Positions 15,214 to 37,250 of a DNA stretch of 64,000 nt are shown here, piece by piece. The DNA comes from Escherichia coli. Lineage in GTDB: Bacteria > Pseudomonadota > Gammaproteobacteria > Enterobacterales > Enterobacteriaceae. A program made the translations under genes and the position numbers. Positions within the stretch are counted from its first letter, which is position 1. Each line of letters begins with the position of its first letter. A model generated the notes under the pieces. It worked only from the letters and a program-made list of their open reading frames with translations. It was not told the origin of the DNA and did not search any database. The stretch lies in the NCBI RefSeq assembly GCF_045037415.1, contig NZ_CP173438.1. One strand, given 5' to 3'.

Positions 15214-15226
15214 ACCTGAGGTACGG

Positions 15227-15736: not shown

Positions 15737-15748
15737 CAGGGGCCAGCA

Positions 15749-17239: not shown

Positions 17240-17246
17240 CTGATAT

Positions 17247-19365: not shown

Positions 19366-20034
19366 ATGACGCAATCCATTTTTCAGGCTCAACCCTTTGA
19401 ATTACCTTTTGATCCGCGCACAACTGCACTGGTCATGATCGACATGCAGCGTGACTTTGTCGAAGCCGGGGGCTTCGGTGAGGCACTGGGCAATGATGTT
19501 TCACGGGTACGCACGGCTATCGCACCATGTACAGAGGTGCTGGCAGCCGCACGTCAAAAAGGAATTATGGTTATTCATACTCGTGAAGGCCATCGTGCAG
19601 ACTTAAGCGACTGCCCGCCAGCCAAACTGACGCGCGGCGGAAAAACCTTTATTGGTGAACCAGGACCGATGGGACGCATTCTGGTCAGAGGTGAAGCAGG
19701 TCATGACATCATTCCTGAACTGTACCCGGTGGCAGGCGAACCGGTGATTGATAAGCCTGGCAAAGGCGCGTTTTATCAAACCGACTTACATCTGATTTTG
19801 CAAAACCACGGTATCAAGACGCTGATAGTTTGTGGTGTAACAACCGAAGTTTGCGTAACCACCACCGTGCGCGAAGCAAATGATCGTGGCTATGAATGCA
19901 TTATCCCGGAAGATTGTGTCGGCTCCTATTTCCCGGAATTCCAGAAATACGCCCTCGAGATGATCAAAGCACAAGGTGCCATTTTCGGTTGGGTTACTGA
20001 TTCCAAAGCCATTATTGCAGGTCTGGAAGGCTAA
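19366..20034 (+). CDS. Isochorismatase-family cysteine hydrolase (RutB / N-carbamoylsarcosine amidase / biuret hydrolase-like amidase)
   Basis: 222 aa; family triad context D (LVMIDMQRDF), K (DKPGKGAF), C (LIVCGVTTEVCV); RBS aggag upstream. Confidence 0.75.
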   Translation: MTQSIFQAQPFELPFDPRTTALVMIDMQRDFVEAGGFGEALGNDVSRVRTAIAPCTEVLAAARQKGIMVIHTREGHRADLSDCPPAKLTRGGKTFIGEPGPMGRILVRGEAGHDIIPELYPVAGEPVIDKPGKGAFYQTDLHLILQNHGIKTLIVCGVTTEVCVTTTVREANDRGYECIIPEDCVGSYFPEFQKYALEMIKAQGAIFGWVTDSKAIIAGLEG

Positions 20035-20039
20035 CGCCG

Positions 20040-20900
20040 ATGGTACAGGTTACGCTTTGCGCATCGTCGTTGGGATATCTTTTCCCGCAGGATGAAACGC
20101 AAGATTTACGTCTACATAGCGCTTTTAAACATGCGGTAAATCTGTATTCAGACGCGGGAACATTCATCACTCTGTTGTGTGCGCAAACGTATCTGAATCT
20201 CCCTGATGCTGCCAGAGTCTGGCTACCTGAATGTTGGGACTGGCGAAGAGAGATTGCCCATTCAGATCCCATTCAGTTAACCCCAGGCTTGCTGCGGACA
20301 CCTCGATTTTGTGTGGCGCTCGATAACGCAACGCTCTGGCAGTCGCCATTTGTGGGGGGAATGCTGACACTTGAGGCATTCCCTTTGGTTTTCCAGCACT
20401 ACCCAACGATGGCATCGCAACGGCTTTTATTTTGTCTGGAGCATAACGTTCAAAGCACATTGCACCTGCCGGATAGTCTCACGCACCAGGGATTAGCGAT
20501 TATGGAGCATCCAGATGCGCTGGAACGCCAGGTGCCACAACTGATCGGCTTTGGTAAAGGCTTAACGCCCGATGGAGATGACTATTTGTTGGGCTATCTG
20601 GCAGCGCTCTGGTTATGGCAACTCCCTGCACCACTTGCCGATCATCAATACCGGTTGCAGCAGGCAATTGATCAACATGCGCACAACACCACGGATATCA
20701 GTCGTCATTATCTGGAGCGTGCGCTTCAGGGACATTTTTCAGAACCGATTTGCCAGTTACTCGCACAACTGGTTGGGAGCGCATCGGCAATGACAATCGC
20801 ATCCTGTGCAGAACAGGTCATGCAATTTGGCGCAACGTCAGGAGTAGATTGCCTTGCAGGAATGCTGCATGGCTTTCGAACCCTGAACACCATGAATTGA
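20040..20900 (+). CDS. DUF2877-like protein (YahE/YlbF-like; putative carbamoyltransferase accessory subunit)
   Basis: 286 aa ORF starting 6 bp after the amidase stop. Assignment rests mainly on length and its position directly upstream of the FdrA-like gene, as in the yahEFG and fdrA-ylbEF clusters. Confidence 0.45.
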   Translation: MVQVTLCASSLGYLFPQDETQDLRLHSAFKHAVNLYSDAGTFITLLCAQTYLNLPDAARVWLPECWDWRREIAHSDPIQLTPGLLRTPRFCVALDNATLWQSPFVGGMLTLEAFPLVFQHYPTMASQRLLFCLEHNVQSTLHLPDSLTHQGLAIMEHPDALERQVPQLIGFGKGLTPDGDDYLLGYLAALWLWQLPAPLADHQYRLQQAIDQHAHNTTDISRHYLERALQGHFSEPICQLLAQLVGSASAMTIASCAEQVMQFGATSGVDCLAGMLHGFRTLNTMN

Positions 20901-20994
20901 TTTCAACCTTTTCTCCCGTAGCCCGTTTATGGGGCTACACGGGGATGCTTTGCCCGAATTTTGCTATCGGGCGGAATGAAACAGGCGTAACAGC

Positions 20995-22554
20995 ATGAAA
21001 GTTAAATATAAAGTTTTCAGTAATCTTTATCAGGACTCAGTTTCTCTGATGCAGATTTCCGCGCAAATCAGCAAGTTGCCCGGTATTCAACAGGCCTCGG
21101 TCGTCATGGGAACGCCCAATAATCTCGAACAATTGCGCGATGCGGGTCTGGGTAACGAAATCAACGCCAGTCCCAATGATTTAGTGATTGCAGTCATGGG
21201 TGAAGAAGATATTTGCAATGAAGCACTGATACTGGCCCAGCAACGTCTGACCAGCAAACCCGATGATGAAACGGATAGTGGCATTAAAACACCGGAAAAG
21301 GTCAGCCTGGAAATGGCACTGGAAGCCGAACCCGAAGCCAACCTGGCACTCATTTCTGTACCGGGAGACTACGCCGCCGCCGAAGCAATTAAAGCGTTAA
21401 ACCTCGGAATGAACGTGATGATGTTCAGCGATAACGTCAGTATCGTGCAGGAAAAATCCATCAAAACGCTTGCCCGAGAACGTCAGCGCATCGTAATGGG
21501 ACCTGACTGTGGAACCGCCATTGTTAACGGCATTCCGTTAGGCTTCGCTAATGTGGTGAAACGCGGAGCAATTGGTGTTATTGGCGCGTCAGGCACCGGG
21601 CTACAGGAAGTGACTTGCCGAATCGACCAGCTCGGAGCGGGTATTTCTCAGGCGTTGGGAACAGGCGGACATGATCTCAGTAAAGAGATTGGTGGAATAT
21701 CGATGCTCTTCGCTTTAGATGCGCTGGCGCAAGACGATGAAACTCGCGTAATTGTGCTGATTTCAAAACCGCCTTCACCGATCGTTGCCCGGACTATTCT
21801 GGAGCGCGCCGAGGCTTGTGGAAAACCCGTGGTGGTGAATTTCCTCGGGGCGAATCCGCATGATCTGGCACGTCCCAATATCACTGCCGCCACCACACTT
21901 GCCAGCGCCGCCGACATCGCTGTGGCGTTACTGAATGCTCAGCCACTTCCGGCTGTCGAAACCGATGTACCCTGCGACGATCTCACAATGTTACAAAACG
22001 CCTGCCAGCGCCTGCCAGCCCATCGCCAGGCGATACGCGGTGTTTTCGCCGGAGGAACCTTCTGCTACGAAGCGCAACTTATCTGCCAACAAAAGGGATT
22101 CAGCGCAGCTTCCAATACGCCAGTTGCGGGTAATCGTGCTCTGGCAAATATCTGGCAAAGCGAAGATCACACGTTGATCGATATGGGCGACGATGATTTC
22201 ACCCGTGGCAAACCGCATCCAATGATCGACCCGACTCTGCGCAATCAACGTCTGCTCAACGAACTCAACGACTCACACACTGCCGTCGTGTTATTCGACC
22301 TGGTACTTGGTTATGGCGCTTCCACGACGCCTGCCAGCGAATTACTGGACCAACTTTCACACATCGACATGAATAACGCTCCGTTGCTGATTGCGCACGT
22401 TTGCGGAACGGAAGCTGATCCGCAAATACGCAGTCAGCAGATAAGCGCACTACAAAATGCAGGGGTCATCATCGCCAGCAGCAATGCACAGGCGGCGCTA
22501 TGGGCCAGCACCGTTGCACAGACTCAGTTGCAGAAAAAGGGGCTAAACGCATGA
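20995..22554 (+). CDS. FdrA-family protein (succinyl-CoA-synthetase-like fold)
   Basis: 519 aa; motifs QDSVSLM, NLALISVPGDYAA, NVMMFSDNV, MGPDCGT, GVIGASGTG, KPHPMIDPTLRNQ shared with E. coli FdrA/YahF. Confidence 0.7.
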   Translation: MKVKYKVFSNLYQDSVSLMQISAQISKLPGIQQASVVMGTPNNLEQLRDAGLGNEINASPNDLVIAVMGEEDICNEALILAQQRLTSKPDDETDSGIKTPEKVSLEMALEAEPEANLALISVPGDYAAAEAIKALNLGMNVMMFSDNVSIVQEKSIKTLARERQRIVMGPDCGTAIVNGIPLGFANVVKRGAIGVIGASGTGLQEVTCRIDQLGAGISQALGTGGHDLSKEIGGISMLFALDALAQDDETRVIVLISKPPSPIVARTILERAEACGKPVVVNFLGANPHDLARPNITAATTLASAADIAVALLNAQPLPAVETDVPCDDLTMLQNACQRLPAHRQAIRGVFAGGTFCYEAQLICQQKGFSAASNTPVAGNRALANIWQSEDHTLIDMGDDDFTRGKPHPMIDPTLRNQRLLNELNDSHTAVVLFDLVLGYGASTTPASELLDQLSHIDMNNAPLLIAHVCGTEADPQIRSQQISALQNAGVIIASSNAQAALWASTVAQTQLQKKGLNA

Positions 22555-23975
22555 ATACCTTATTTAATCAGCCTTTGAAGGTTGTGAACGCGGGACTACA
22601 CAGTTTTGCTGACAATATTCAACATGCCGGGGGAAGCGCAATTGCACTCAACTGGCAGCCACCAGCACAAGGCGATATTGACGCTGGATTGGATCTGGCA
22701 TCGTTGCTACGTCATCCCCTGGTAGAAAATGCCAACCAAATCGCCATGGCACGTTATCTCGAAGCACAGCCCGTGCTGGTGGATGTCATGCTTGCTAAAG
22801 AGGCCATTCCAGCAATGGCTGAACAAAAACGTATTTTGCACTCTGGCCCGCCGATTGCCTGGGAAGAGATGTGTGGTCCGGTAAAAGGGGCGATTATTGG
22901 TGCCATGCTGTACGAAGGTTGGGCCACCAGCCAGCAAGACGCTGAAAACCAGATAAACGCAGGCGAAATCGACCTTGCCCCTTGTCATCATTATCACGCG
23001 GTTGGCCCAATGGCAGGCATCATCAGCCCGTCGATGCCGTTATGGGTGGTAGAAAACAAAACCAACGGCCACCGTACTTTTAGCAATTTCAATGAAGGTC
23101 TGGGTAAGGTTCTCCGTTTTGGCGCCAATAACGATGAAGTTCTCAATCGTCTGGCCTGGATGCGCGATGAACTGACGCCGGCAATGAAAGCAGCAATCGC
23201 ACAACACGGCGAGCTGGAACTCAAGCCATTAATGGCGCAGGCGCTGCATATGGGGGATGAAGTTCATAACCGCAATGCTGCCGCTACCGGTTTGCTGATT
23301 AAGCGCCTGCTCCCGGCATTGCTGGCCTGCTCTCTTCCACAGGAACATATCCAGCGCGTCGTGGCATTTATCACCGGTAACGATCACTTCTTCCTCAATC
23401 TGTCGATGGCCGCCTGTAAAGCAATGATGGATGCCGCCGCCAATGTACCGTTCAGTTCAATGGTTACGGTGATGGCGCGTAACGGGGTGAATTTTGGTAT
23501 TCGGATTTCCGGTACTGGCGATCGCTGGTTCCAGGCTCCTGCCAATGCCGTTGAAGGTCTGTTCTTCCCCGGATTTGGCGTTGACGACGCTGCTGCTGAC
23601 CTGGGTGATAGCGCAATTACTGAAACCGCAGGTGTGGGTGGCTTCGCGATGGCGTCGTCTCCGGCGATCGTCAAATTTGTGGGAGGCACCCCTGCCGATG
23701 CCACCAATAACAGCCGTCGGATGCAAGCCATCACCCTCGGCGGTAACCCCGCATTTACACTTCCAGCCCTCAATTTTGCCCCCACCGCAGCAGGGATTGA
23801 TGCGCGTAAAGTGACCGATCGCGGCATTTTACCGGTCATCAATACGGGTATCGCCCACAAACAAGCGGGGGTCGGGCAAATTGGTGCCGGGATCACCACT
23901 GCGCCGATGGCCTGTTTTGTCGCCGCTGTACGTGCACTGGCGGAGATCGTCGCAAAGGAGAACCATCATGGTTAA
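22551..23975 (+). CDS. DUF1116-family protein (YlbE/YahG-like)
   Basis: Start ATG overlaps the FdrA-like stop as ATGA (translational coupling); ~474 aa, the size of YlbE/YahG. Confidence 0.6.
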   Translation: MNTLFNQPLKVVNAGLHSFADNIQHAGGSAIALNWQPPAQGDIDAGLDLASLLRHPLVENANQIAMARYLEAQPVLVDVMLAKEAIPAMAEQKRILHSGPPIAWEEMCGPVKGAIIGAMLYEGWATSQQDAENQINAGEIDLAPCHHYHAVGPMAGIISPSMPLWVVENKTNGHRTFSNFNEGLGKVLRFGANNDEVLNRLAWMRDELTPAMKAAIAQHGELELKPLMAQALHMGDEVHNRNAAATGLLIKRLLPALLACSLPQEHIQRVVAFITGNDHFFLNLSMAACKAMMDAAANVPFSSMVTVMARNGVNFGIRISGTGDRWFQAPANAVEGLFFPGFGVDDAAADLGDSAITETAGVGGFAMASSPAIVKFVGGTPADATNNSRRMQAITLGGNPAFTLPALNFAPTAAGIDARKVTDRGILPVINTGIAHKQAGVGQIGAGITTAPMACFVAAVRALAEIVAKENHHG

Positions 23976-24924
23976 GCCACTGGCTGTCGTCGCGGTTGGC
24001 GGCAATGCGCTCATTCAGGACGAGCAACGCAATAGTATTCCCGATCAATATGTTGCAGTGATGGAAAGCGTGCAGCATATCGTTGATATGGTTGAAGCCG
24101 GATGGGACCTGGTGCTAACCCACGGTAATGGCCCGCAGGTGGGCTTTATTCTGCGCCGCTCTGAACTCGCCAGTAACGAAGTTTCTCCGGTTCCACTTGA
24201 TTACGCCGTGGGTGATACACAAGGTGCAATTGGCTACATGTTCCAGAAAGCGCTGCATAACGAACTCGCTCGCCGTGGCATAAACAAACCGGTAATTGCC
24301 CTGGTGACACAAACGCGAGTCAGCCCACATGACGATGCTTTCGCCAGCCCCAGTAAACCGATTGGCGCGTTTCTCGATGAAGCAACGGCCCAACAACGCC
24401 AACAACAACTCGGCTGGACGCTGATGGAGGACGCCGGGCGTGGTTGGCGGCGTACAGTTCCCTCTCCTGCACCACTGGAAATTATTGAGCACGACACCAT
24501 CGCTCACCTGGTGCGCCAGGGATATCTGGTTATTGCCTGCGGCGGCGGCGGTATTCCGGTGGTGCGAGACGGGCAACAACTGAAAGGTGTAGAAGCCGTG
24601 ATCGATAAAGATCTGGCCTCCGCGCTGCTCGCCAGTCAGTTAGGCGCAGATCTGCTGGTGATCCCCACCGGTGTAGAAAAAGTGGCGATTAACTTTGGTA
24701 CACCACAACAACAGTGGCTCGACGCTATCAGCGTTGCCGAAGCGCAAACGCTGTTGCGGGAAGGTCAGTTTGGTGTCGGCAGTATGCAACCCAAAGTGGA
24801 AGCCATTGTTGATTTCATCAATGCCAGCCAGCAACAAGGCAAACAGGCCAGCGGCCTGATTACTTCACCGCAAACCATAAAAGCAGCCCTGGCGCATCAG
24901 AGCGGTACATGGATAACCCTTTAA
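23968..24924 (+). CDS. Carbamate kinase
   Basis: Start at MVKPLAVVAVGGNAL with RBS aaggag; carbamate-kinase motifs THGNGPQVG, CGGGGIPV, VIDKD, GSMQPK; overlaps the upstream stop by 8 bp. Confidence 0.8.
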   Translation: MVKPLAVVAVGGNALIQDEQRNSIPDQYVAVMESVQHIVDMVEAGWDLVLTHGNGPQVGFILRRSELASNEVSPVPLDYAVGDTQGAIGYMFQKALHNELARRGINKPVIALVTQTRVSPHDDAFASPSKPIGAFLDEATAQQRQQQLGWTLMEDAGRGWRRTVPSPAPLEIIEHDTIAHLVRQGYLVIACGGGGIPVVRDGQQLKGVEAVIDKDLASALLASQLGADLLVIPTGVEKVAINFGTPQQQWLDAISVAEAQTLLREGQFGVGSMQPKVEAIVDFINASQQQGKQASGLITSPQTIKAALAHQSGTWITL

Positions 24925-24940
24925 TTCTCTGGAGAACACA

Positions 24941-25330
24941 ATGACTACAACGCTTTTAGCCGTTAACGGAACGCTGATGCGCGGCCTGGAACTCAACCCA
25001 AATATGCAAAAAGCGGGCGGTATTTTTGTCCGTGAAGACCGAACTGACGCCCATTACCGGTTGTGGAGTATTAATGATCGCCATCCGGGAATGATTCGCG
25101 TGAATGAAGGAGGAACACACGTCGACGTAGAAATTTGGCAATTACCGCTGGCCAGTTTTGCCGCTCTGTTAATGAGCGAACCCGCTGGGCTGGCAATTGG
25201 CAAAATCAAACTTGCCGATGGTAGCGAAGTGCTGGGCGTACTGGCAGAAAACTGGCTGACCGAAGGCCAACGGGAAATTACAGAACTGGGTAGCTGGCGT
25301 AAATACACCGGGCATTTTCATACTGTGTAA
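24941..25330 (+). CDS. Gamma-glutamylcyclotransferase-like (AIG2/GGCT fold) small protein
   Basis: 129 aa, N-terminal LLAVNGTLMRG resembles the GGCT-fold YGSL-type motif; function inferred only weakly. Confidence 0.4.
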   Translation: MTTTLLAVNGTLMRGLELNPNMQKAGGIFVREDRTDAHYRLWSINDRHPGMIRVNEGGTHVDVEIWQLPLASFAALLMSEPAGLAIGKIKLADGSEVLGVLAENWLTEGQREITELGSWRKYTGHFHTV

Positions 25331-25355
25331 CGCGCATTTATAAAGGGAACATACT

Positions 25356-26579
25356 ATGCGTAAAAAAGAAGAGAATCTGAATACGGCATCAGGATTGCGT
25401 ATTGCCATGATTTTGCTGGGTATTGCCGTCACACCTGTGCTGTTGTCATCCTCAAGCCTCGGCAATCAACTTTCCAGCGGCAGTTTAATTAGCGTCGTAT
25501 TGTTAGGCGGCGTCATTCTGACCTTACTTTCAGCCATCACCATTAGCGTGGGAGAAAAAGCCCGCCTGCCAACGTATGGCATTGTGAAATATTCGTTTGG
25601 CGAAAAAGGGGCCATCGCCATTAACATTTTGATGGCGATAAGTCTGTTCGGCTGGATTGCCGTTACCGCCAATATGTTTGGTCATTCGGTACATGACTTA
25701 CTGGCTCAACATGGACTGGAAGTTCCACTGGCACTGTTAGTGGCGGCTGGCTGTGTCATTTTTGTCGCCTCTACGGCATTTGGCTTTGCCGTTCTGGGAA
25801 AAATTGCCCAGGTTGCCGTGCCGGTTATCGCGCTGGTGCTGTGTTACATCCTCTATGTGGCAACCCATACCGAAGTGGCAGTACCAGCGGCGATTGTGGA
25901 GATGAATACAGGTGTCGCCGTTTCCACCGTTGTTGGCACCATTATTGTGCTGGTTGCCACACTGCCTGATTTCGGTAGTTTTGTGCATAACCGCAAACAT
26001 GCGCTGATTGCCGCAGGCGTGACGTTTCTGGTTGCCTACCCTCTGCTCTACTGGGCGGGTGCAACGCCGAGCGCCATTAGTGGTCAGGGATCTTTACTGG
26101 GTGCGATGGCGGTATTCGGTGCAGTTCTGCCTGCGGCGCTGTTGTTGATTTTCGCCTGCGTCACCGGTAACGCGGGCAATATGTTCCAGGGCACGCTGGT
26201 GGTTTCCACACTGCTTACCCGCTTTCCCAAATGGCAGATTACCGTGGCGCTGGGTATCCTTTCCGCCATCGTAGGCAGTATGGATATTATGGCGTGGTTT
26301 ATTCCGTTTCTGCTGTTCCTGGGTATCGCCACGCCACCCGTTGCCGGAATTTATATCGCTGACTTTTTCCTTTATCGCCGTAATGGCTATCAAGAGTCAG
26401 TGTTAGCCCAGGAGTCACAGATTAAAGTGCTGACATTCGCAGCATGGATCATAGGCGCAGCGGTTGGCTTTATGACCGTAAAAGGCTTATTCACCCTGAC
26501 GACGATCCCTTCGGTAGACTCGATTCTGGTGGCATGTATCGCGTATGCGATTCTCAGTCGGGCAAGTCAACACCGCTAA
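25356..26579 (+). CDS. NCS1-family nucleobase/ureide permease (cytosine permease CodB-like)
   Basis: 407 aa, ~12 TM segments, size and composition like CodB/allantoin-type permeases. Confidence 0.65.
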   Translation: MRKKEENLNTASGLRIAMILLGIAVTPVLLSSSSLGNQLSSGSLISVVLLGGVILTLLSAITISVGEKARLPTYGIVKYSFGEKGAIAINILMAISLFGWIAVTANMFGHSVHDLLAQHGLEVPLALLVAAGCVIFVASTAFGFAVLGKIAQVAVPVIALVLCYILYVATHTEVAVPAAIVEMNTGVAVSTVVGTIIVLVATLPDFGSFVHNRKHALIAAGVTFLVAYPLLYWAGATPSAISGQGSLLGAMAVFGAVLPAALLLIFACVTGNAGNMFQGTLVVSTLLTRFPKWQITVALGILSAIVGSMDIMAWFIPFLLFLGIATPPVAGIYIADFFLYRRNGYQESVLAQESQIKVLTFAAWIIGAAVGFMTVKGLFTLTTIPSVDSILVACIAYAILSRASQHR

Positions 26580-26656
26580 TTCCTGGGTATACTCAGGCAA
26601 TGATTACGGCTGAATCTGGAGAGATTCAGCCACTTTACCACTGACCAGGGAGCCTT

Positions 26657-27562
26657 ATGTTCATCTCAGACGAAACGCTTCGTGTTATTCATCTGGTCGC
26701 CAGACACCAGAGCATTACCACCGCAGCCGAGCAGTTAAATAAAGTCCCTTCCGCCATCAGTTACACCATCAAGAAAGCGGAAGAGAGCCTGGGCGTTGAA
26801 CTGTTCATTCGTAAGGGACGCTATATTGAATTATCGCCAGCGGGAAGTTACTTCATCGAACATAGCAAAACTATTCTTGGCGACCTGGAAGCATTAAAGC
26901 GCAACACAGTGCTGATTCACGATGGTATTGAGCGTGAACTGACAATTGCGGTAAACAATATTATTCCTGGTGATTTGCTGGTGGCATTTATTCGAGATTT
27001 TGAACGGCAATTCACATCAACAACACTGACGGTAGATCTTGAGGTATACAACGGCTGCTGGGATGCGCTGTACAGTAAGCGTGCTGATCTGGTCTACGGT
27101 GCTCCTCATGCAGTACCAAGCAGTGAAGGCATCATTAGCGAACCGGTCGGACAAATGGAATGGGATTTTGTCGTCAGCCCACTCCACCCACTGGCAGCGA
27201 AGCGGCATCCATTAGAAAACAGTGAATTGCGTCATTATCCAGCGGTTTGTATCCGCGATACCTCCGTTAACTTCCCCCCGATGCAAGCCTGGTTGTTGGA
27301 AGGACAAAAACCCATTTTTGTTCCTGACTTCGCTACGGCAATCGCCTTAATAGAACAAAACGTCGGTATTGGTTATATTCCACATCATCTGGCATTACCG
27401 TTATTGAACAGCGGTAAATTGCTTAAAAAGCCAATGCGCGAACATAAACACGCCACCAAGTTATTTCTTGCCGCTCGTTCCGATGGTATGGGCAAAGCCT
27501 GTCAGTGGTGCATAGAATATTTAAGAAACCAGCAATTAATGACACGATTTGTATTTAATTGA
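26657..27562 (+). CDS. LysR-family transcriptional regulator
   Basis: 301 aa; N-terminal HTH (TAAEQLNKVPSAISYTIKKAEESLGVELF) plus LysR substrate-binding domain. Confidence 0.8.
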   Translation: MFISDETLRVIHLVARHQSITTAAEQLNKVPSAISYTIKKAEESLGVELFIRKGRYIELSPAGSYFIEHSKTILGDLEALKRNTVLIHDGIERELTIAVNNIIPGDLLVAFIRDFERQFTSTTLTVDLEVYNGCWDALYSKRADLVYGAPHAVPSSEGIISEPVGQMEWDFVVSPLHPLAAKRHPLENSELRHYPAVCIRDTSVNFPPMQAWLLEGQKPIFVPDFATAIALIEQNVGIGYIPHHLALPLLNSGKLLKKPMREHKHATKLFLAARSDGMGKACQWCIEYLRNQQLMTRFVFN

Positions 27563-27689
27563 CAATACAATGATAAAAATATAAGTCTTGCTTTAATTAG
27601 AGCGCCCGTTTAAATTATTTTTGTGCAGTTGACGTAATTCATGAAAATTAACCGGTCTGTTAATCATTACGTTCACTGCACACCTTCAT

Positions 27690-27761
27690 TTTTTCACACC
27701 TATCCACGCCTGAAAACTATGTTATAATCAGCACTTTCTGTCAGAATGAAATTTACTAATT
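27690..27761 (+). promoter_or_regulatory. Putative promoter of the RpiR-family gene (extended -10 TGTTATAAT)
   Basis: tgttataat about 35 bp upstream of the ATG in an AT-rich intergenic region. Confidence 0.3.
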
Positions 27762-28607
27762 ATGAATAACATAACCGTAAAAAGTCTGATTCAAAGCAAT
27801 TACCCTACACTGCATCAGGCGGAAAAAAAGGTCGCTGACTATATTCTTAGCCACGCACATGAAGTCGTGAACTATAGTGTCACTGAACTATCAGAAAAAA
27901 GCCATGCCAGTGAAGCGACTATCGTACGCACCTGTAAGAAATTAGGTTATCAGGGTTATTACCATTTAAAAATTGCATTAGCAAAAGAAGTCATTAATCC
28001 TGACAATAGCTATCCTGAAAATACCGACTTCAGCGATATAACATCTTTGGCAACCTTTTTATTAAAAAAACAGGCCGAAGATTTAATACAATCAACGCAA
28101 TTTTTTAATGCCGACGTGCTTGAGTCCATTCTCAAACTACTTGCTAATTGCGATACTATTTTCTTTTTTGCTGCCGGAAATTCAAACCCACTGGCCGTTT
28201 ATAGTGCTTATAAATTCAGCCAACTCGGATTAAAAACCGTTGTTCACGTCAGCCCGGAAATGCAAATTAATGCGGCATATTCTATGGGGAAACGCGACCT
28301 GGCGATTGGTATTTCTAACTCTGGCAGCACCAACTTAATGGTCGATATCTTTAAAGTGGTGAAAGAGCGCGGTGCCAAATCCGTTTGTATCACTAACTAT
28401 ATTAAATCTCCGTTATCAAAACTCTCCACCCATCAACTCAATACCGCGGTCAGCGATAAAATCTTCTTTGAAGCCTTCGACTCCACTCGCGTTCCGGCAA
28501 TGGGCGTTATTGATATGCTGGTGCTGTTGTTTATGTATAAAAACAAGGCGCATTACGAGAAATACCGCACCCGTGAAGAGTTTCTTGGCTCCCGTTTCAA
28601 GGGGTAA
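27762..28607 (+). CDS. RpiR/MurR-family transcriptional regulator (HTH_6 + SIS domain)
   Basis: 281 aa; N-terminal RpiR-type HTH (LSEKSHASEATIVRTCKKLGYQGY) and C-terminal SIS sugar-phosphate-binding domain. Confidence 0.8.
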   Translation: MNNITVKSLIQSNYPTLHQAEKKVADYILSHAHEVVNYSVTELSEKSHASEATIVRTCKKLGYQGYYHLKIALAKEVINPDNSYPENTDFSDITSLATFLLKKQAEDLIQSTQFFNADVLESILKLLANCDTIFFFAAGNSNPLAVYSAYKFSQLGLKTVVHVSPEMQINAAYSMGKRDLAIGISNSGSTNLMVDIFKVVKERGAKSVCITNYIKSPLSKLSTHQLNTAVSDKIFFEAFDSTRVPAMGVIDMLVLLFMYKNKAHYEKYRTREEFLGSRFKG

Positions 28608-28629
28608 AAGGTCATCCTTTCACCCCTTG
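28598..28629. terminator. Hairpin between convergent RpiR-family and transketolase genes
   Basis: caaggggtaaaagg-tcat-cctttcaccccttg inverted repeat; no clean U-tract on either strand. Confidence 0.35.
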
Positions 28630-28636
28630 TGCAGGT

Positions 28637-30634
28637 TTAGCTGTTCAGTAGCTCACGCGCCTGCGCCAGGACATTTTCCGGCGTAAAACCAAAGTGTTTG
28701 AACAACACATTCGCCGGAGCAGACTCACCAAAGCTCGTCATGCCGATCACTTTACCGTCCAGGCCCACGTAGCGTTCCCAGAATCCGGCGATGCTGGCTT
28801 CTACCGCCAGACGTTTGCGTACAGCTTTTGGCAATACCGACTCTTTGTACGCCGCATCCTGATTATCGAAACGCTCGGTACACGGCATGGAAACCACGCG
28901 AACTTTACGCCCTTCTTCCGTTAACGCTTTTGCGGCGCTGACCACTAACTCAATCTCTGAACCCGCAGAAATGAGGATCATCTCAGGCTGACCGTCACAA
29001 TCACTCAGTACATAACCACCACGCGCAATCTCTGCCAACTGTGCAGCGGTGCGCGGCTGTTGCGCCAGAGGTTGGCGCGTTAATACCAACGACGTTGGGC
29101 CATCTTTGCGCTCAATCGCCTGTTGCCAGGCCACCGCCACTTCCACCTGATCGCAACCGCGCCAGGTTTCCATATTCGGCGTCAGACGCAGCGACGCCAG
29201 TTGCTCAACGGGCTGATGTGTCGGGCCGTCTTCGCCCAGGCCGATGGTATCGTGGGTATAAACAAACACCGAGCGGATCTTCATCAGCGCCGCCATGCGC
29301 AGTGCATTACGCGCATATTCCATAAACATCAGGAAAGTACCGCCGTAAGGGATAAACCCACCATGCAGCGCAAGACCGTTCATGATGGCCGACATACCAA
29401 ATTCACGCACGCCATAGGAGATGTAATTCCCCGCCGGATTTTCTCCGGTGAAATCAACCGATTTCTGATGGCGAGTCAGGTTAGAGGGCGACAAGTCCGC
29501 CGAGCCGCCCATCAGTTCCGGCAGCATATCTGCGAAGTGATTGAGGCATTTCTGGCTAACCTGACGGGTTGCCAGCGCCGCCGGATGGGATTGCAGATCG
29601 TGCACATATTTCTGCATATTCTCGACCCAGCCAGCAGGCAAATCACCCTTCATGCGACGAGTAAACTCCGCCGCCAGTTCCGGCCACTGCTTCGCGTAGT
29701 CGGCAAACAGTGCATCCCATTCCTGTTGAACCTGCGCGCCTTTCTCGGTCGCATCCCATTCGGCATAAATTTCACCAGGAATTTCGAAAGGGGCATACGG
29801 CCATTGCAGACGTTCACGCACCAGCGCCACTTCATCTGCACCCAGCGCCGAGCCGTGGCAATCGTGGCTGTTGGCTTTATTTGGCGAACCAAAACCGATA
29901 ATCGTTTTGCAGCACAGCAGACTGGGCTTATCCGTGACGCTTTTCGCTTCACGCACCGCAGCATCTACCGCTTCTGGATCGTGACCATCAACGCCTTCAA
30001 TGACATGCCAGCCGTAGGCACGAAAACGGGCAGCCGTATCTTCAGCGAACCAGCCTTCTACGTGACCATCGATCGAAATACCGTTATCGTCCCAGATAGC
30101 AATCAGATTGCCGAGCTTCAGCGTTCCTGCAAGACCACAGGCCTCGTGGGAGATCCCTTCCATCAGACAGCCATCACCCAAAAATAACCATGTGTGATGA
30201 TCAACAATATTAAAGCCCGGTTTGTTAAATTCTGCCGCCAGCGCCTTCTCCGCAATCGCCATCCCCACCGCATTAGCTACGCCCTGCCCCAACGGGCCGG
30301 TGGTGGTTTCAACACCCGGCGTATAACCATATTCTGGATGACCCGGCGTGCGGGAGTGGAGCTGACGAAAGTCGCGAATATCATCCATCGACAGGTCGTA
30401 GCCTGTAAGATGCAGCAAAGCGTAAATCAACATGGAGCCGTGACCGTTCGACTGAACATAGCGGTCGCGGTTAAACCACTGCGGATTTTTTGGGTTATGA
30501 CGCAGGTGACGACGCCAGACCACTTCGGCAATATCCGCCATCCCCATCGGCGCGCCCGGATGACCGGAGTTCGCTTTCTGGATCGCATCAACACTTAACA
30601 TTCGGATGGCATTAGCCAGTAATTGTGAATTCAT
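28637..30634 (-). CDS. Transketolase (full-length, additional paralogue of TktA/TktB)
   Basis: 665 aa; collinear with TktA over the whole length ([15 protein letters not shown], ThDP-binding [20 protein letters not shown]) but clearly divergent from both TktA and TktB as I recall them. Confidence 0.9.
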
Positions 30635-30684
30635 ACTTCAGCTCTCTCTGTCTGGCGGGCTGAAACCAGCCCGCTAATCTCGAA

Positions 30685-32193
30685 TTAGTTAGCACAGGCC
30701 ACTGTCATTTCTGTCGGGCGCGGTCTGCTCATTACGGTTTTGATTTCGTCGCGCAGGATTTGCGATTTGCCGCCAAATATCACCTGTACACCGCCATCAC
30801 CCAGTTTCACTAAACCCGCAGCCCCCAACTCCTTCAGCCGTTTTTCATTCACTTTCTTATCGTCTACCAGCGCCAGCCTTAGGCGTGTTGCGCAGGCATC
30901 CACATCTTCGATATTGTCGAAACCACCTACTGCTTCGATGATTTGGTATGGACGTTCTTCGCGCGTTAATGTGGTTGCAACGGCAATCTCTTCATCCTCA
31001 CGCCCCGGTGTTTTCAGATTCAACTTGCGGATCAGTACCCGAAATACGGTGTAGTAAATCGCTGCATAGCCCGCGCCTGCCAGGAACACCAGATACCACG
31101 GCGTGCGGTTTGGCATAACGCCATTCAGTACGAAATCAATAAGACCGCCAGCAAAAGGATGACCAATGTGCACATTCAGGATGTTCATCAGCACAAATGA
31201 AGTGGCATATAAGAAGATGTGAATGATGTAGAGAACCGGCGCTGCAAACAAAAATGCATATTCCAGCGGCTCCGTAATCCCGGTAACAAATGTGGTCAGC
31301 GCACCGGAGAGTAAAAGGCCTTTAATCAGCGCCTTACGTTCCGGTTTTGCTTCCTGATACATCGCCAACGCGGCGGCAGGTAACGCAAACATCATGATCG
31401 GGAAACGACCTGTCATAAACAGCCCCGCCGTCAACGGAGCACCGTCGCGCAATTGGGCAAAGAACACCGGAATATCGCCCGTCACCAGTTGCCCGGATTT
31501 GGTCATGTAGTCGCCAAAGTTGTAATAAAACGGCACGTTCCAGATATGATGCAGGCCAAAAGGAATCAGCGAACGTTCGCCAACGGCGTAAATAAAGGCC
31601 GCGAAGTTCGCGTTATGTCCACTGGTCACCAGCGTTGAAAGCGACGCCAGACCTTTTTGTACCGGTATCCACAGCCACGGCAATAAATAGCCGACAATAA
31701 TTGCCGCCACAGCCGTAATAATCGGTACAAAGCGTTTTCCACCGAAGAAACCAAGAAACTGAGGCAATTCAATATTGTGGAAGCGGGTATAGAGCAGATA
31801 AACAAAGATGGCGACAATCAGACCGCCAAACACTCCCGTTTGTAACGTCGGTACCCCGAGGATCATCGCATAATCACCGTTACTGGCTGCAACGGACTCC
31901 GCAGTAATGCCAAGTTGCGTTCCCATCGTGGCATTCATGATCATGTAACTGATAATCGCTGAAAGTGATGAAGAACCATCACCTGTCAGGCCAATCACAA
32001 TACCGACACAAAACAGCAAAGGAAGGTTGGCGAAAATCAGGCCGCCGCAATTCGCCAGCAGCTCAATGTTAAATGAAATCCCGATGGCTAAAATCAAACC
32101 CGCCGCCGGAAGAATGGCGATTGGTAACATCAGAGCAGAAGAAAATTTCTGCAACTTCTTGAAGTTAAACAAGGATGTTATTTTTTTGCTCAT
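30685..32193 (-). CDS. PTS system glucose-family EIICB component
   Basis: 502 aa; EIIC membrane domain with GITEPLEY motif and C-terminal EIIB domain with the phospho-cysteine motif CATRLR. Confidence 0.85.
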   Translation of the reverse strand: MSKKITSLFNFKKLQKFSSALMLPIAILPAAGLILAIGISFNIELLANCGGLIFANLPLLFCVGIVIGLTGDGSSSLSAIISYMIMNATMGTQLGITAESVAASNGDYAMILGVPTLQTGVFGGLIVAIFVYLLYTRFHNIELPQFLGFFGGKRFVPIITAVAAIIVGYLLPWLWIPVQKGLASLSTLVTSGHNANFAAFIYAVGERSLIPFGLHHIWNVPFYYNFGDYMTKSGQLVTGDIPVFFAQLRDGAPLTAGLFMTGRFPIMMFALPAAALAMYQEAKPERKALIKGLLLSGALTTFVTGITEPLEYAFLFAAPVLYIIHIFLYATSFVLMNILNVHIGHPFAGGLIDFVLNGVMPNRTPWYLVFLAGAGYAAIYYTVFRVLIRKLNLKTPGREDEEIAVATTLTREERPYQIIEAVGGFDNIEDVDACATRLRLALVDDKKVNEKRLKELGAAGLVKLGDGGVQVIFGGKSQILRDEIKTVMSRPRPTEMTVACAN

Positions 32194-32234
32194 TTTTATT
32201 CTCCTGTAGGGTATCGAGCAAATAACGGCGACGA

Positions 32235-32804
32235 CTATTCCAGATTGGCGTGGCGCTTAAACAGTTCACTTTCCGGCGCACCACTTTCAGCAGCCATCTT
32301 CATCACTAATGCATCGGCAATCACCAGCAAAGCTTGCTCATACAACGACGCCATCGGCTGTGCCGAGCGGAAAACAGAATCTTTTTGATTTTTGGAAGGG
32401 GCATTGATTTGCACGATGACGTCGACAAACTCGGTGATAGTGGCGTGTCGATTCGTGGTTAACACCGCCACAGCGCCGCCGAGCTGACGTGCTTTTTTCG
32501 CCAGCGCCACCAGTTGTGCTGTCTCACCGGAAGCAGAAGAAACGATAAACAGATCGCCAGGCCCAAAGTTCGGCGTAATGGTTTCCGTCAGGAAGTAAAC
32601 CTCTTTTCCCATATGCATCAGGCGCATGGTGAAGGCTTTCATAGAAAAACCGGCGCGTCCCAGGCCATAGCAGAAAACGCGCTGGCTTTGCTGAATAGTG
32701 TCGATCAATTTGGTGCAGTCATCCTCACGGATAGAGTCCTTAACGAAGGTTAATTCATTGATGATCTCAGTGATGTACAGCTTTGCGTCCATTTCACACC
32801 TCAT
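32235..32804 (-). CDS. 6-phospho-3-hexuloisomerase-like SIS-domain protein (HxlB/PHI family)
   Basis: ~185 aa single SIS domain; MRLMHMG, QPMASLYEQ and C-terminal HANLE closely resemble B. subtilis HxlB. The true start may be the second Met (MDAKLYI, 12 bp in). Confidence 0.75.
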   Translation of the reverse strand: MRCEMDAKLYITEIINELTFVKDSIREDDCTKLIDTIQQSQRVFCYGLGRAGFSMKAFTMRLMHMGKEVYFLTETITPNFGPGDLFIVSSASGETAQLVALAKKARQLGGAVAVLTTNRHATITEFVDVIVQINAPSKNQKDSVFRSAQPMASLYEQALLVIADALVMKMAAESGAPESELFKRHANLE

Positions 32805-32829
32805 GAAATAATTTTCTCAAACACAAAAT

Positions 32830-32850
32830 CTCATGAAATTTTATTTCATT
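32830..32850. promoter_or_regulatory. Perfect palindrome TGAAAT-TTT-ATTTCA upstream of the PHI-PTS-transketolase operon (candidate operator)
   Basis: tgaaattttatttca about 30 bp upstream of the SIS gene start; related TGAAAT/ATTTCA copies near 32793-32810, 32865 and 32990. Confidence 0.3.
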
Positions 32851-33091
32851 CCAATGCATCAGTATGAAATGTGAAGCTAGTCACAAGAAAGATCATAGGT
32901 TGATATGTTTTTCATTAAAAAACATAGAGATATCAAGTAATTTTTAATATGTGATGGAGAGGCAGATAGAAAAAATGGCGGAAATGACGAAATTTATTTC
33001 ATGAGAAGGGAATAAAGAAGATTTTCTTAAACAGGGTATGAACTGATATCTGGAATGGTTTACGCAGTATGCTGGGAAGACGTCGCTGTAA

Positions 33092-33122
33092 TGAGAAAAG
33101 ACCGGGTGGTATTACCACCCGG
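33092..33122 (-). terminator. Rho-independent terminator downstream of metE
   Basis: ccgggtggt-att-accacccgg stem with a T-rich tract on the minus strand just after the metE stop. Confidence 0.5.
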
Positions 33123-33130
33123 TTTGGATT

Positions 33131-35392
33131 TTACCCCCGACGCAAATTCTGCGCCGCCTGCACCATGTTCGCCAGTGCCGCGCGGGTTTCTGGCCAGCCG
33201 CGCGTTTTCAGGCCACAGTCCGGGTTGACCCACAGACGCTCTGCCGGAATGCGTTTTGCCGCTTTCTTCAGCAAGGCTTCAATCCATTCCACGCTCGGTA
33301 CGTTTGGCGAGTGAATGTCATAGACGCCAGGACCGATTTCATTTGGATAATCAAACTCTTCAAACGACTCCAGCAACTCCATGTCGGAACGCGAGGTTTC
33401 GATGGTGATGACGTCTGCGTCCAACGCCGCAATCGAATCCATAATGTCGTTGAACTCGCAGTAACACATGTGAGTGTGGATTTGTGTGTCATCTTTCGCC
33501 ACGGCGGCGTTGATACGGAAAGCCTCCACGCCCCACTGGAGATAGGCATCCCAGTCGCTGCGACGCAGTGGTAAACCTTCGCGCAATGCCGGTTCGTCAA
33601 TCTGAATGATGCCAATTCCAGCGGCTTCCAGATCGGCCACTTCATCACGCAGTGCCAGCGCAATCTGTTTGGCGATGGTTTCACGGCTGACATCTTCACG
33701 CGGGAACGACCAGCAGAGAATAGTCACCGGGCCAGTCAACATCCCTTTCACCGGTTTATCAGTCAGGGATTGCGCATATTTTGCCCACTCCACGGTAATC
33801 GGTGCCGGGCGGCTAACGTCACCAATAACAATCGGTGGCTTCACGCAGCGGGAACCGTAGCTCTGTACCCAACCGTTTTGCGTAAAGACAAAGCCATCCA
33901 GATGCTCGCCAAAGTATTCCACCATGTCATTACGCTCGGCCTCGCCATGTACCAGCACATCCAGTCCCAAACGTTCCTGCTCAACAATGGCCTGCTTGAT
34001 ATGTTCCGCAATGCCCGTGCGGTAGTTATTGGCGTCGATATTACCCTTTTTAAAATCCAGACGCAGGGTACGAATCTCCGTGGTTTGCGGGAAGGAACCA
34101 ATCGTGGTGGTCGGCCACGCGGGCAGTTTAAAACGCGCACGCTGGGCTTCAGCACGCACTTCATAGACATTCGCACGCTGACTGTCCTGGGCGGTGATCG
34201 CCGCCAGACGCTTTTCTACTGCCGGATTATGTACACGAGTAGAGTGACGACGCGCCTGAATCGGAGCGCTCCACTCTGCCAGAGCTGCCGTATCACCACT
34301 GTTCAGCGCATCGCGCAGCAATGCCAGTTCATGACATTTTTGCAAGGCGAAGGCAAACCAGCTTTTCACTTCTGCATCAAGACGCGTTTCCACGCTCAGG
34401 TCGATGGGGCTGTGCAGCAGTGAGCAGGAAGATGCCACCCACAAATCACGTTTGCCGACAATGTCCTTAATTTGCGCATATTTCTCGGTAAGATCGGCGC
34501 GCCAGACGTTACGACCATTGATAAGACCCGCAGACAGCAGCCAGTCAGAAGGCAGGCGCTTGTGCAGTTCAGCAACGTCATCTTTACCATGTACAAGATC
34601 GACATGCAGACCCTGAACAGGCAGCGCAGTAATCGTGTCGAGGTTTGGCGTTACGCCTTCAAAATAGGTGGTCAGCAGCAGTTTCACCTGGCCCTGGAGC
34701 GCGTCGTAAGCGGGTTTGTATGCATCCAGCCACGCCTGCGGCAGTTCCAGCACTAGCGCGGGTTCGTCGATCTGTACCCACTCAATGCCGCGTTTCGCTA
34801 GTTCTGCCAGCACTTGCTGATAAACCGGCAGAATGTCGTTCAGCAGGCTCAGGCGATCAAACTGTTCACCTTTCACTTTACCCAGCCACAGGTAGGTAAC
34901 CGGCCCCAGCAGCACAGGTTTCACCTTGTGGCCCAGCGCCAGCGCCTCGTCCACTTCCTCCAGCAGCTGCGTCCAGGTCAGTTTGAACTGTTGGCCTTTA
35001 ACGAACTCCGGCACCATGTAGTGATAGTTGGTGTTAAACCATTTGGTCATTTCCGCTGCCGCCGCAGGTTCGCCAGTCGGTGCACGTCCACGACCAATAC
35101 GGAACAGGGTATCGATATCTACCGAACCATCGTTGTTCTGATGACGTTGCGGAACATTACCCAGCAGCAGACTGGTTGTCAGTACATGATCGTACCAGGC
35201 AAAATCGCCCACCGGCAGCAGGTCGATACCCGCTTGCTTTTGTTGATCCCAGTGACGAGCACGCAATTCACGCCCTACCGCCAGCAGTTCTTCACGCGTG
35301 GAGTTCCCCGCCCAATAACTCTCTTGCGCTTTTTTCAGCTCGCGACGCAGGCCAACGCGAGGGAAACCGAGGGTGTGATTAAGAATTGTCAT
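33131..35392 (-). CDS. metE: Cobalamin-independent methionine synthase
   Basis: 753 aa, full-length match to MetE ([23 protein letters not shown]...). Confidence 0.95.
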
Positions 35393-35509: not shown

Positions 35510-36463
35510 ATGATCGAAGTAAAACACCTGAAAACGCTACAAGCGTTGCGGAACTGCGGCTCACTCGCAGCCGCTGCGGCGACGTTGCATCAAACGCAAT
35601 CCGCCCTGTCTCACCAGTTTAGCGATCTGGAACAACGCCTTGGCTTCCGGCTATTTGTGCGTAAAAGCCAGCCGCTTCGCTTTACACCGCAGGGAGAAAT
35701 CCTGTTGCAACTGGCAAATCAGGTGCTGCCGCAAATTAGCCAGGCACTGCAAGCCTGCAATGAACCGCAGCAGACGCGCCTGCGCATTGCCATAGAGTGC
35801 CATAGCTGTATTCAGTGGCTGACGCCCGCATTAGAAAATTTCCATAAGAACTGGCCGCAGGTGGAGATGGATTTTAAATCGGGCGTAACGTTTGATCCGC
35901 AGCCTGCGTTGCAACAGGGCGAGCTGGATCTGGTGATGACGTCCGATATTCTGCCGCGCAGTGGCCTGCATTATTCGCCGATGTTCGACTATGAAGTACG
36001 TCTGGTGTTAGCACCTGACCATCCACTGGCGGCAAAAACGCGTATTACACCGGAAGATCTCGCCAGCGAAACGCTGTTGATTTATCCGGTGCAGCGTAGC
36101 CGACTGGATGTCTGGCGGCATTTTCTTCAGCCAGCAGGCGTCAGCCCGTCACTGAAAAGCGTCGATAACACCTTATTGTTGATTCAGATGGTTGCCGCAC
36201 GGATGGGTATTGCCGCACTACCTCATTGGGTGGTGGAGAGTTTTGAACGCCAGGGTCTGGTGGTCACCAAAACCCTGGGCGAAGGCTTGTGGAGCCGACT
36301 GTACGCCGCCGTGCGCGATGGCGAGCAGCGTCAGCCGATTACAGAAGCGTTTATTCGTTCAGCGCGCAATCACGCCTGCGATCATCTGCCGTTTGTGAAG
36401 AGCGCGGAGCGACCCACTTACGATGCACCCACAGTGAGGCCAGGATCACCAGCGCGCCTGTAA
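35510..36463 (+). CDS. metR: LysR-family regulator of methionine biosynthesis MetR
   Basis: 317 aa, matches MetR. Confidence 0.95.
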
Positions 36464-37250
36464 TAAACGTTGGCCAGTGCGGCTGTTGGTGCCAGATAGC
36501 CAGGTTTACCAGCAGCCCTGCCGGAACGTGCATATTATTCATAATGCCCAGCGTTCCGGCGTCCACCTGCGTCGCGCCGTAGTTCCACATAAAGTAGCCA
36601 ATCCCGGAAGCCACCACGCCAAGAAACACCAGAATGCCCCATTGCAACGTGGTTTGCGGCATTTTCTGCGCATTTCCCAGCAAGAACCATGCAATCACTG
36701 CCACCAGGAACGCGCCAAGATAGAACCACGCAAAGGCGTTATGCTGCGGCATCGGGCGAGTTTCCATCAGACGTTTGTAACCCACCATGCCGATGGCAAA
36801 AGTGATATTGGAGAGTTGCACCAGCAACAAGCCAGTCCAGAAATGGTCGGTGACCTGATCATAGCGAATAATCCCGGCACCAATCACCGCCAACAAGGCG
36901 CTAAAAGCATAGCCCCAGCGCAGACGGCGCTTACTCATGATGTCATAAATCAGCGTGATGTAGAGCGGCGTCAGTACGGTGAACAACAGCAGTTCAGAAA
37001 CCGTCAGGTAGAGATAGGCGCGGAAACTCAGCATATACATCACACCGAGCTGCATCGCGCCCACCAGCATATACAGGCCGACCGTTTTCAGGCTATTGCC
37101 ACGGGTACGCAGAAACGGCAGAAAAACAAGTGCCGCCAGACCAACGCGCACCAGCACCGCAAAATAGCTATCGACGTGCCCCGCAAGGTACTCGCCATAA
37201 AAGCTAAAGGAGAAGGCCCACAGAATCGTGGTGATGATAAGTAGCGCCAC
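36351..37250 (-). CDS. yigM: Inner-membrane transporter YigM (EamA/DMT family)
   Basis: 299 aa, 10-TM DMT-family protein matching YigM; 3' end overlaps metR convergently. Confidence 0.85.

Follow-up and report, generated by a model that had tools for sequence, protein, structure and literature searches.

What sugar would require a glucose-type permease, a 6-phospho-3-hexuloisomerase (PHI)-like enzyme and a transketolase of its own? The question is raised by a locus at positions 27563–33130 of the window, i.e. the 64,000 nucleotide stretch of Escherichia coli contig NZ_CP173438.1 (assembly GCF_045037415.1) that was analyzed here. The open reading frame (ORF) map displays a MurR/RpiR-family regulator gene on the plus strand that is convergent with a three-gene operon on the minus strand, an arrangement the original prediction, made from the letters alone, had described correctly. 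The operon encodes an isomerase with a single SIS domain, a permease (EIICB) of the phosphoenolpyruvate-dependent phosphotransferase system (PTS), and a transketolase, Tkt1. In the reading proposed here, for which our confidence is evenly balanced, the four genes are a self-contained mobile cassette for a catabolite-repressed, RpiR-controlled pathway in which a glucose-like sugar bearing a carbonyl is split by transketolase. A heptose or heptulose, or else a 3-keto sugar or rare ketohexose, would be the likely candidates for this sugar.

The locus itself was already known: it forms the right half of an island between metE and ysgA that was described in 2012, as the “tkt1 genomic island”, in avian pathogenic E. 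coli (APEC) O1 and in B2 extraintestinal pathogenic E. coli (ExPEC) (Li et al. 2012, BMC Microbiol 12:51, PMC3349570). The island was first identified through a signature-tagged mutant with a virulence phenotype, and it is carried by 85–99% of B2 isolates of APEC, uropathogenic (UPEC) and neonatal meningitis (NMEC) strains (PMC3349570). The same region is Region IVb of the asymptomatic bacteriuria (ABU) strain 83972, and also GR29 of BEN2908, where the SIS_PHI, PTS and RpiR genes were tabulated as uncharacterised in 2026 (PMC12928451). Many RefSeq E. coli chromosomes carry the window block with 100% identity, and the RefSeq context of a 100% identical copy agrees with Table 2 of PMC3349570, both in the ysgA–metE insertion and in the published gene order. 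There is no structural difference between the two; the island comprises a sugar isomerase, a PTS IIBC, tkt1, two regulators, a permease, a carbamate kinase, yahG/F/E-like genes and an isochorismatase. The three-gene operon is found as a single copy of at least 95% identity in 1134 of 5426 complete E. coli genomes, Nissle 1917 and APEC included. In genomes that do not have the island, ysgA is joined directly to metE and the match is confined to the last 84 bases of the query.

The original prediction identified the components of the locus and rightly treated them as a co-transcribed set outside of the ribulose monophosphate (RuMP) pathway, but it did not recognize the published island, an ExPEC/B2 marker. 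The possibility it raised, that the block is a well-characterised sugar operon under another name, does not hold: the locus has a name, however its biochemistry is uncharacterised. The island literature covers only tkt1, with the SIS, PTS and RpiR genes listed as uncharacterised, and the literature search found only the island papers and no biochemical characterisation of the locus or of a system combining PHI, PTS and transketolase. What is new relative to the island papers found is described below: the recurrence of the cassette across phyla, its regulatory sites and its link to a second module.

The four proteins were assigned to families with NCBIfam equivalog models, judged against their curated cut-offs. 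All three enzymes score above cut-off, and their PDB matches are in agreement. The SIS protein scores 205 bits with the HxlB model TIGR03127 (cut-off 160), matches PDB entries 1M3S/1VIV with E = 3e-39 (138 bits to Bacillus subtilis YckF, 1M3S) and is 40% identical to B. subtilis HxlB. By these similarities it is a genuine member of the HxlB/PHI family, as first proposed. The other assignment that had been considered, a fragment of a KpsF/GutQ-type isomerase, fails because the KpsF/GutQ model gives 20 bits; the MurQ model also gives only 20 bits. RefSeq/PGAP names the genes of the locus hxlB, ptsG, tkt and “MurR/RpiR family”.

The EIICB sequence scores 607 bits with TIGR02002 (PTS-IIBC-glcB), barely over the cut-off of 592, and only 42 bits with MurP; it is thus PtsG-like. 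Domains PF02378 and PF00367 are found on near-identical proteins, and the motifs GLHHIW (position 213), GITEP (305) and the EIIB cysteine motif DACATRLR (432) are intact. As the protein has no EIIA domain, it would be expected to depend on Crr. Identity to K-12 PtsG is 44% (PMC12928451). Outside of E. coli, the identity of relatives drops steeply to about 50–57%, the level of Firmicute PtsG/GamP. Among the 120 matches listed, the motif TGDIPVFF is present in 21 relatives (52–87% identity) and absent from the other 99. On the strength of this motif and the distance from K-12 PtsG, the EIICB is judged to form a separate clade, which has the specialised gene neighbors described below.

Tkt1 is a full-length transketolase with N, Pyr and C domains and a TIGR00232 score of 1008 bits (cut-off 682). 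It is 69% identical to TktA and 65% to TktB, which are 76% identical to one another, and the claim of a third full-length paralogue is therefore sound. Identity to the cassette transketolases of Klebsiella and a second enterobacterial locus (L005) is 83–87%, and this, set against the 65–69% to TktA/TktB, indicates that Tkt1 is a separate and old lineage. All 21 of the TktA catalytic and cofactor residues considered, listed with their roles after the E. coli TktA structures, are conserved. They include the thiamine diphosphate (ThDP)- and Mg-binding residues D155, N185, I187, E411, F434, F437 and Y440, and the substrate-binding residues H26, H66, H100, H261, R358, S385, H461, D469, H473 and R520. 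From its residues Tkt1 is predicted to be a mechanistically ordinary transketolase.

Substitutions particular to the Tkt1 clade were scored at positions where TktA and TktB agree. K359Q, A360V, A383S, S463T, S519T and N522P flank the phosphate-binding residues R358, S385, H461 and R520 (the Tkt1 positions concerned are 358–360, 382, 463, 519 and 522), and could reflect a changed substrate preference at the phosphate end. The clustering near these four residues gives P = 0.002, however the test is post hoc and P is 0.06 when all substrate-contacting residues are used, so it is treated as a lead only. In strain R11 (NZ_CP107155.1), an IS1 element with an annotated transposase splits the transketolase gene in an otherwise 100% identical copy.

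The regulator gives family-level NCBIfam matches to HexR (107 bits), PRK11337 (105 bits) and AlsR (95 bits) that span residues 2–279, and its orthologues display PF01418 (HTH_6) and PF01380 (SIS). No equivalog cut-off (HexR, AlsR, MurR) is reached, and the regulator is thus not one of these named MurR/RpiR members.

The gaps within the operon are 41 and 50 bp and a hairpin was sought in both without success; with such short gaps and no hairpins, the SIS, EIICB and transketolase genes are very probably co-transcribed, as had been proposed. The SIS ORF as listed spans 32235–32804 on the minus strand, with a second ATG at 32792. This second ATG is the most likely start, because it has a GAGG Shine-Dalgarno sequence, orthologues are all about 185 aa in length and PGAP/RefSeq makes the same call. 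The operon had also been placed directly upstream of metE; this is incorrect, as in the direction of transcription it comes after metE, and the strong metE terminator between the two insulates it. The coordinates are collected in Table 1. When window positions 27500–28500 and 32500–33000 are compared with 28500–32000, the G+C content is mosaic: rpiR and the SIS gene with its promoter are at 35–41%, and the tkt and PTS genes at 48–56%, mostly 52–56%.

Three conserved blocks stand out from otherwise divergent DNA when the region upstream of the SIS gene is aligned between E. coli, L005, Klebsiella and Serratia. One is a CRP site, whose TGTGA...CAC core is kept in all four of these Enterobacterales. 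Another is a perfect palindrome that overlaps a plausible TAAAAT −10 element and start region; its core, GAAAnAnnATTTCATGA, is likewise kept in the four species. The third block is a degenerate operator-like site over the ribosome-binding region, which in Serratia reads TGAAATATTATTTCT. Palindromes of the form TGAAAT-N3-ATTTCA had been proposed for this region in the plural; one exact copy is present and the second is only degenerate. The palindrome is provisionally assigned to the RpiR protein, and the layout of the sites would be that expected if the operon is under catabolite repression and is kept off by a repressor of the RpiR type. A search for a conserved operator upstream of rpiR found none, and Rfam families gave no match in window positions 27000–33600.

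Table 1. Coordinates of the cassette, its putative regulatory sites and its borders (window positions), and of the linked module in related loci
Feature	Position	Strand	Remarks
MurR/RpiR-family regulator gene (HTH_6 + SIS)	27762–28607	+	ORF, 281 aa; convergent with operon
Inverted repeat, candidate bidirectional terminator	28600–28627		in 29-bp gap between converging rpiR and tkt ends; 12-nt arms, 92% complementary, 4-nt loop
tkt1, full-length transketolase	28637–30634	−	665 aa; last operon gene
Glc-family PTS EIICB, no EIIA domain	30685–32193	−	502 aa
HxlB-type single-SIS-domain isomerase	32235–32792	−	185 aa; first operon gene
Degenerate second site GAAAAT-T-ATTTCA, putative operator	~32804–32816	−	over ribosome-binding region; conserved block
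Palindrome TGAAAT-AAA-ATTTCA, candidate RpiR operator	32834–32848		perfect; only exact match in 64 kb
CRP consensus TGTGA-N6-TCACA	32870–32885		perfect; only zero-mismatch match in 64 kb
Island/backbone junction	~33047		E. coli without island match only query 5485–5568, i.e. window 33047–33130
metE intrinsic terminator	33123–33101	−	hairpin of 10 pairs (7 GC), then T-run
metE	33131–35392	−	ORF map
Dehydrogenase/epimerase/hydrolase/glycerate kinase module	L089:15593–20558; L002:3177–9138; L008:10061–12818; L090:12782–15530; L007:12170–16108; L004:4605–7332		related loci

The cassette is conserved across phyla, in Klebsiella, Serratia, Enterococcus, Sebaldella, Rhodococcus and Glutamicibacter. 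Gene neighborhoods were examined in about a dozen loci (L numbers) obtained from PTS relatives and SIS orthologues, and the combination of SIS, PTS, transketolase and RpiR genes recurs in Klebsiella, L005/L006, Sebaldella, L004 and Enterococcus. The enterobacterial loci L005/L006 and Klebsiella pneumoniae L089 have the SIS-PTS-Tkt order with a convergent rpiR. Sebaldella L003 and Enterococcus L091 have SIS, a transketolase split into N and C halves, PTS and RpiR. In Enterococcus, Sebaldella and L005/L006 this four-gene form is also found alone. The order in L004 is AP_endonuc_2, GFO_IDH_MocA, alpha/beta-hydrolase, SIS, split transketolase, PTS, RpiB, EIIA and RpiR. Rhodococcus L008 and Glutamicibacter L090 display a GntR regulator followed by SIS, PTS (EIICBA), (HPr, EI), GFO, AP, hydrolase and (full-length transketolase), with SIS-PTS-GFO-AP-hydrolase in one operon. 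L007 has PTS, GFO, AP, hydrolase, glycerate kinase and ROK, and in Enterocloster L092 an ABC transporter precedes the SIS gene and a split transketolase, with kinases and an aldolase also present.

Pairwise identities across hosts are 61–87% for PTS, 46–80% for SIS and 42–76% for RpiR, whose orthologues adjoin the cassette in Klebsiella, Serratia, L005, Sebaldella and L004. On these comparisons the three proteins are orthologous across hosts. The transketolase, however, is non-orthologous and of three types, i.e. gamma-proteobacterial full-length, split N+C and actinobacterial full-length. DNA homology between E. coli and Klebsiella extends over exactly 27759–32853, i.e. the four genes and the promoter, at 74.5% identity. 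For all four genes dN is 0.07–0.16 and dS is saturated, values that indicate purifying selection on the cassette.

The search was extended in several ways. A scan of genome contigs that started from seven aligned PTS orthologues keyed on generic EIIC peptides, and all it gave were ordinary ptsG loci (≤53% identity). These were used as a negative control: SIS, RpiR-orthologue and GFO/AP/hydrolase neighbors are missing from all 80, and the sole transketolase-like match is a partial TkC at one edge of L017. In metagenomes, a degenerate TGDIPVFF pattern gave 93 stretches, of which 20 are real; all of these are E. coli-like and add no new diversity. Plasmids yielded no PTS orthologue at ≥60% identity. 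SIS matches on plasmids were rejected as cassette relatives since they are canonical hxlAB-type genes. Two loci (L187:2337–6096 and L188:266–4025) have a PTS of the same clade, at 59% identity, and after it the genes for RpiR, a class II aldolase of the FBP type and a cupin of the lyxose-isomerase type, in place of SIS and transketolase; they may represent a third way of processing a possibly related sugar phosphate.

In half of the related loci the cassette adjoins a second set of genes, encoding a Gfo/Idh/MocA dehydrogenase (GFO), an AP_endonuc_2 TIM-barrel protein (AP) that resembles ketose-3-epimerases, an alpha/beta-hydrolase that resembles enol-lactonases, and a glycerate kinase that is supplied by two non-homologous families (Table 1). 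In Klebsiella and Serratia these genes make up an operon of their own (GFO-AP-hydrolase-glycerate kinase) beside the cassette, with a regulator that resembles SgrR. The proteins match no NCBIfam equivalog and have only remote PDB relatives (inositol dehydrogenases, DgpA, 3-oxoadipate enol-lactonase). None of the 5426 complete E. coli genomes has the module.

Three groups of known systems resemble the cassette in part. It shares an HxlB/PHI-family isomerase with the RuMP pair hxlA-hxlB of B. subtilis and methylotrophs, but it has no hexulose-phosphate synthase (HPS) and no HxlR, and its isomerase is coupled to PTS, transketolase and RpiR instead. A tblastn search with B. subtilis HxlA (E ≤ 1e-3) found nothing in the window or in 11 related loci; the earlier statement that the locus is not an RuMP module is upheld and the RuMP pathway was rejected for the same lack of HPS. 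With the murR-murQ-murP and alsR/rpiB-als operons it shares an RpiR regulator with SIS sensor, a Glc-family EIIBC that is without EIIA, and an SIS enzyme acting on a 6-phosphate made by the PTS. Unlike murR-murQ-murP, its SIS enzyme is PHI-type and not an etherase, its PTS is PtsG-like rather than MurP, and a transketolase is added. Gram-positive ascorbate ula/sga clusters and Listeria pentitol PTS operons have their own additional, often split, transketolase for entry into the non-oxidative pentose phosphate pathway. However, the E. coli PTS belongs to the Glc family, not L-Asc or Gat, and the cassette is without lactonase, decarboxylase, epimerase or polyol-phosphate dehydrogenase. Biochemically, the locus appears to be a new form of the PTS catabolic operons under RpiR control, in which PHI is unusually combined with a transketolase and which belongs to a wider, uncharacterised family.

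In the pathway that we propose, EIICB, charged by EI, HPr and Crr of the host, would import the sugar and phosphorylate its terminal primary hydroxyl. Next, the HxlB-type isomerase would shift the carbonyl, and the product would be a 2-ketose phosphate whose C1 hydroxymethyl group is free; 3-hexulose 6-phosphate is converted to fructose 6-phosphate by an isomerisation of this type. A 3-hexulose-type keto-sugar could be a substrate. Tkt1 would move C1–C2 to an aldose phosphate, with all of the carbon passing into the non-oxidative pentose phosphate pathway. The promoter would be CRP-dependent, and RpiR would be bound as a repressor at the palindrome over the −10/start region until a sugar phosphate of the pathway occupies its SIS domain. 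As far as the sequences indicate, the constant core is a specialised Glc-family permease and a PHI-type isomerase under a phosphosugar-sensing repressor, and the variable partner is always an enzyme or route that cleaves carbon–carbon bonds, i.e. transketolase, an alpha/beta-hydrolase pathway ending in glycerate, or a class II aldolase. The independent recruitment of three unrelated transketolase types suggests that the pathway needs ordinary transketolase chemistry on a C1-hydroxymethyl 2-ketose phosphate.

Several points weigh against this proposal. Since EIICB passes the cut-off of a glucose-specific model, plain glucose is a possible substrate. Fructose 6-phosphate as the isomerase product would leave a dedicated transketolase unneeded; this makes a seven-carbon sugar attractive, with a 3-keto sugar or rare ketose as the other option. 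Sedoheptulose 7-phosphate is a natural transketolase donor, all of whose carbon must pass via transketolase. The PTS and SIS genes are joined elsewhere to a module absent from E. coli, which may therefore run only part of an ancestral pathway. In phenotype microarrays a tkt1 deletion had no carbon-source defect (PMC3349570), however this is to be expected if TktA and TktB are redundant, and since both remain in the mutant the array is uninformative. The main counter-evidence is that arabinose-induced Tkt1 failed to rescue the K-12 tktA mutant BJ502 on arabinose (PMC3349570). This argues against an ordinary transketolase unless expression failed, and it conflicts with an active site that appears completely conserved. 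In the text of the paper as available here, the result is a single plate assay with no enzyme assay or expression control (PMC3349570).

If the failed complementation is taken at face value, Tkt1 might not be a working transketolase at all and might instead act in the nitrogen metabolism of the dipeptides Pro-Ala and Phe-Ala, after Li et al. (2012). Use of these two dipeptides as nitrogen source was lost in the deletion mutant and restored by pBAD-tkt1 (PMC3349570). This explanation is very improbable: a defect in 2 of 760 wells is weak evidence, Tkt1 is 69% identical to TktA and keeps all catalytic, ThDP- and Mg-binding residues, its gene belongs to a sugar PTS operon whose conservation across phyla extends to versions with other transketolase types, and there is no peptide-related domain. 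Another proposal accepts the enzymes but not the sugar. In a formaldehyde-handling or reverse RuMP shunt, PHI would work with a promiscuous HPS activity of the host 3-keto-L-gulonate 6-phosphate decarboxylases (SgbH/UlaD) to interconvert fructose 6-phosphate with ribulose 5-phosphate and formaldehyde, and transketolase would recycle the pentoses. The SIS protein does pass the HxlB equivalog model, these decarboxylases have weak HPS activity, and PHI and transketolase genes adjoin in methylotroph RuMP clusters. However, with no HPS homologue in the window or the 11 related loci, canonical hxlB genes lying behind hxlA with an HxlR regulator (on plasmids, hxlA is immediately upstream and the regulator HxlR-type), and a PTS permease and an RpiR sugar-phosphate sensor that make no sense for formaldehyde, we consider such a shunt highly improbable.

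It is also unlikely, though less remotely so, that the locus provides a redundant glucose or glucosamine permease together with a pentose phosphate booster (for nucleotides, aromatic precursors and lipopolysaccharide heptose) in blood or urine. The score of EIICB over the glucose-specific IIBC cut-off, its nearest characterised relatives (Firmicute PtsG/GamP) and the canonical appearance of Tkt1 are in keeping with this, as is the association of the island with ExPEC, where a tkt1 transposon (signature-tagged) mutant was out-competed in chicken organs, i.e. attenuated in vivo (PMC3349570). A glucose role, however, leaves the PHI-type isomerase with no part in the catabolism and does not explain a dedicated RpiR sensor; moreover the PTS clade with its TGDIPVFF signature and 61–87% identity across phyla is always beside specialised enzymes, which neighbor none of the 80 ordinary ptsG loci. 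Finally, the cassette could be a truncated remnant of the larger Klebsiella/actinobacterial type of pathway, either non-functional or active only on a side product. In Klebsiella L089, SIS-PTS-Tkt-RpiR is directly followed by glycerate kinase-hydrolase-AP-GFO and an SgrR-like regulator, the actinobacteria have both parts in one operon, and 5426 of 5426 E. coli genomes are without the second module. Yet the four-gene form stands alone in other hosts too, all four E. coli genes are intact, under apparent purifying selection and kept in 1134 genomes, and the promoter, CRP site and operator are conserved. This makes a remnant quite unlikely.

The pathway proposed above, for a carbonyl-bearing sugar split by transketolase, can be placed in a wider frame, which is offered only tentatively. 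The E. coli cassette may be the minimal form of an undescribed cross-phylum rare-sugar pathway, for a heptose/heptulose or a 3-keto sugar, that has three interchangeable cleaving solutions and aids extraintestinal fitness of B2 strains. The sugar would come from other microbes or from the host. Cleavage would be by transketolase in E. coli, Enterococcus and Sebaldella, by class II aldolase in L187, and by the Gfo/Idh/MocA, TIM-barrel and alpha/beta-hydrolase route to glycerate in Klebsiella and actinobacteria. Three specific substrates were considered and set aside. 1,5-anhydroglucitol offers no carbonyl for the isomerase in hosts that have the four-gene form alone. Glucosylglycerate would account for the glycerate kinases; the dehydrogenase and lyase, however, are missing from E. 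coli, Enterococcus and Sebaldella. Ascorbate-like lactones would call for another PTS family and a decarboxylase, which is not present.

The left half of the island (window 19366–27562, plus strand) is a module of its own, with genes for a cysteine hydrolase/isochorismatase, AllH-like, FdrA and YlbE-like proteins, a carbamate kinase, a protein related to allophanate hydrolase, a transporter resembling cytosine permeases and a PunR/AllS-like LysR regulator (288 bits, below the cut-off of 345). By its gene content it looks like a catabolic set for a nitrogen heterocycle or for oxamate/carbamate, and the nitrogen-source phenotype reported for the island might have more to do with this module than with tkt1. 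Upstream of udp, at window positions ~13560–17240 (L001:1–3677), there is a second, small islet, which matches the “5-kb islet between udp and rmuC” of Li et al. (PMC3349570). Its products are a 2-dehydro-3-deoxygalactonokinase, a KDPGal aldolase and a tripartite tricarboxylate transporter of the TctABC type. The convergent 3′ ends of metR and bioP (yigM) overlap by ~113 bp, as in RefSeq (window 35510–37250).

The locus does not represent a new kind of system, but an orphan pathway that is tractable and of clinical relevance. The island is among the most consistent accessory markers of B2/ExPEC strains, including ST131-type clinical strains and also Nissle 1917, and knowing the sugar would account for how a major pathogen lineage adapted to a niche. 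This knowledge would also give a non-RuMP function to many “hxlB” genes annotated in non-methylotrophs, and would open up the dehydrogenase/epimerase/hydrolase/glycerate kinase pathway that is tied to the same transporter in Klebsiella and actinobacteria.

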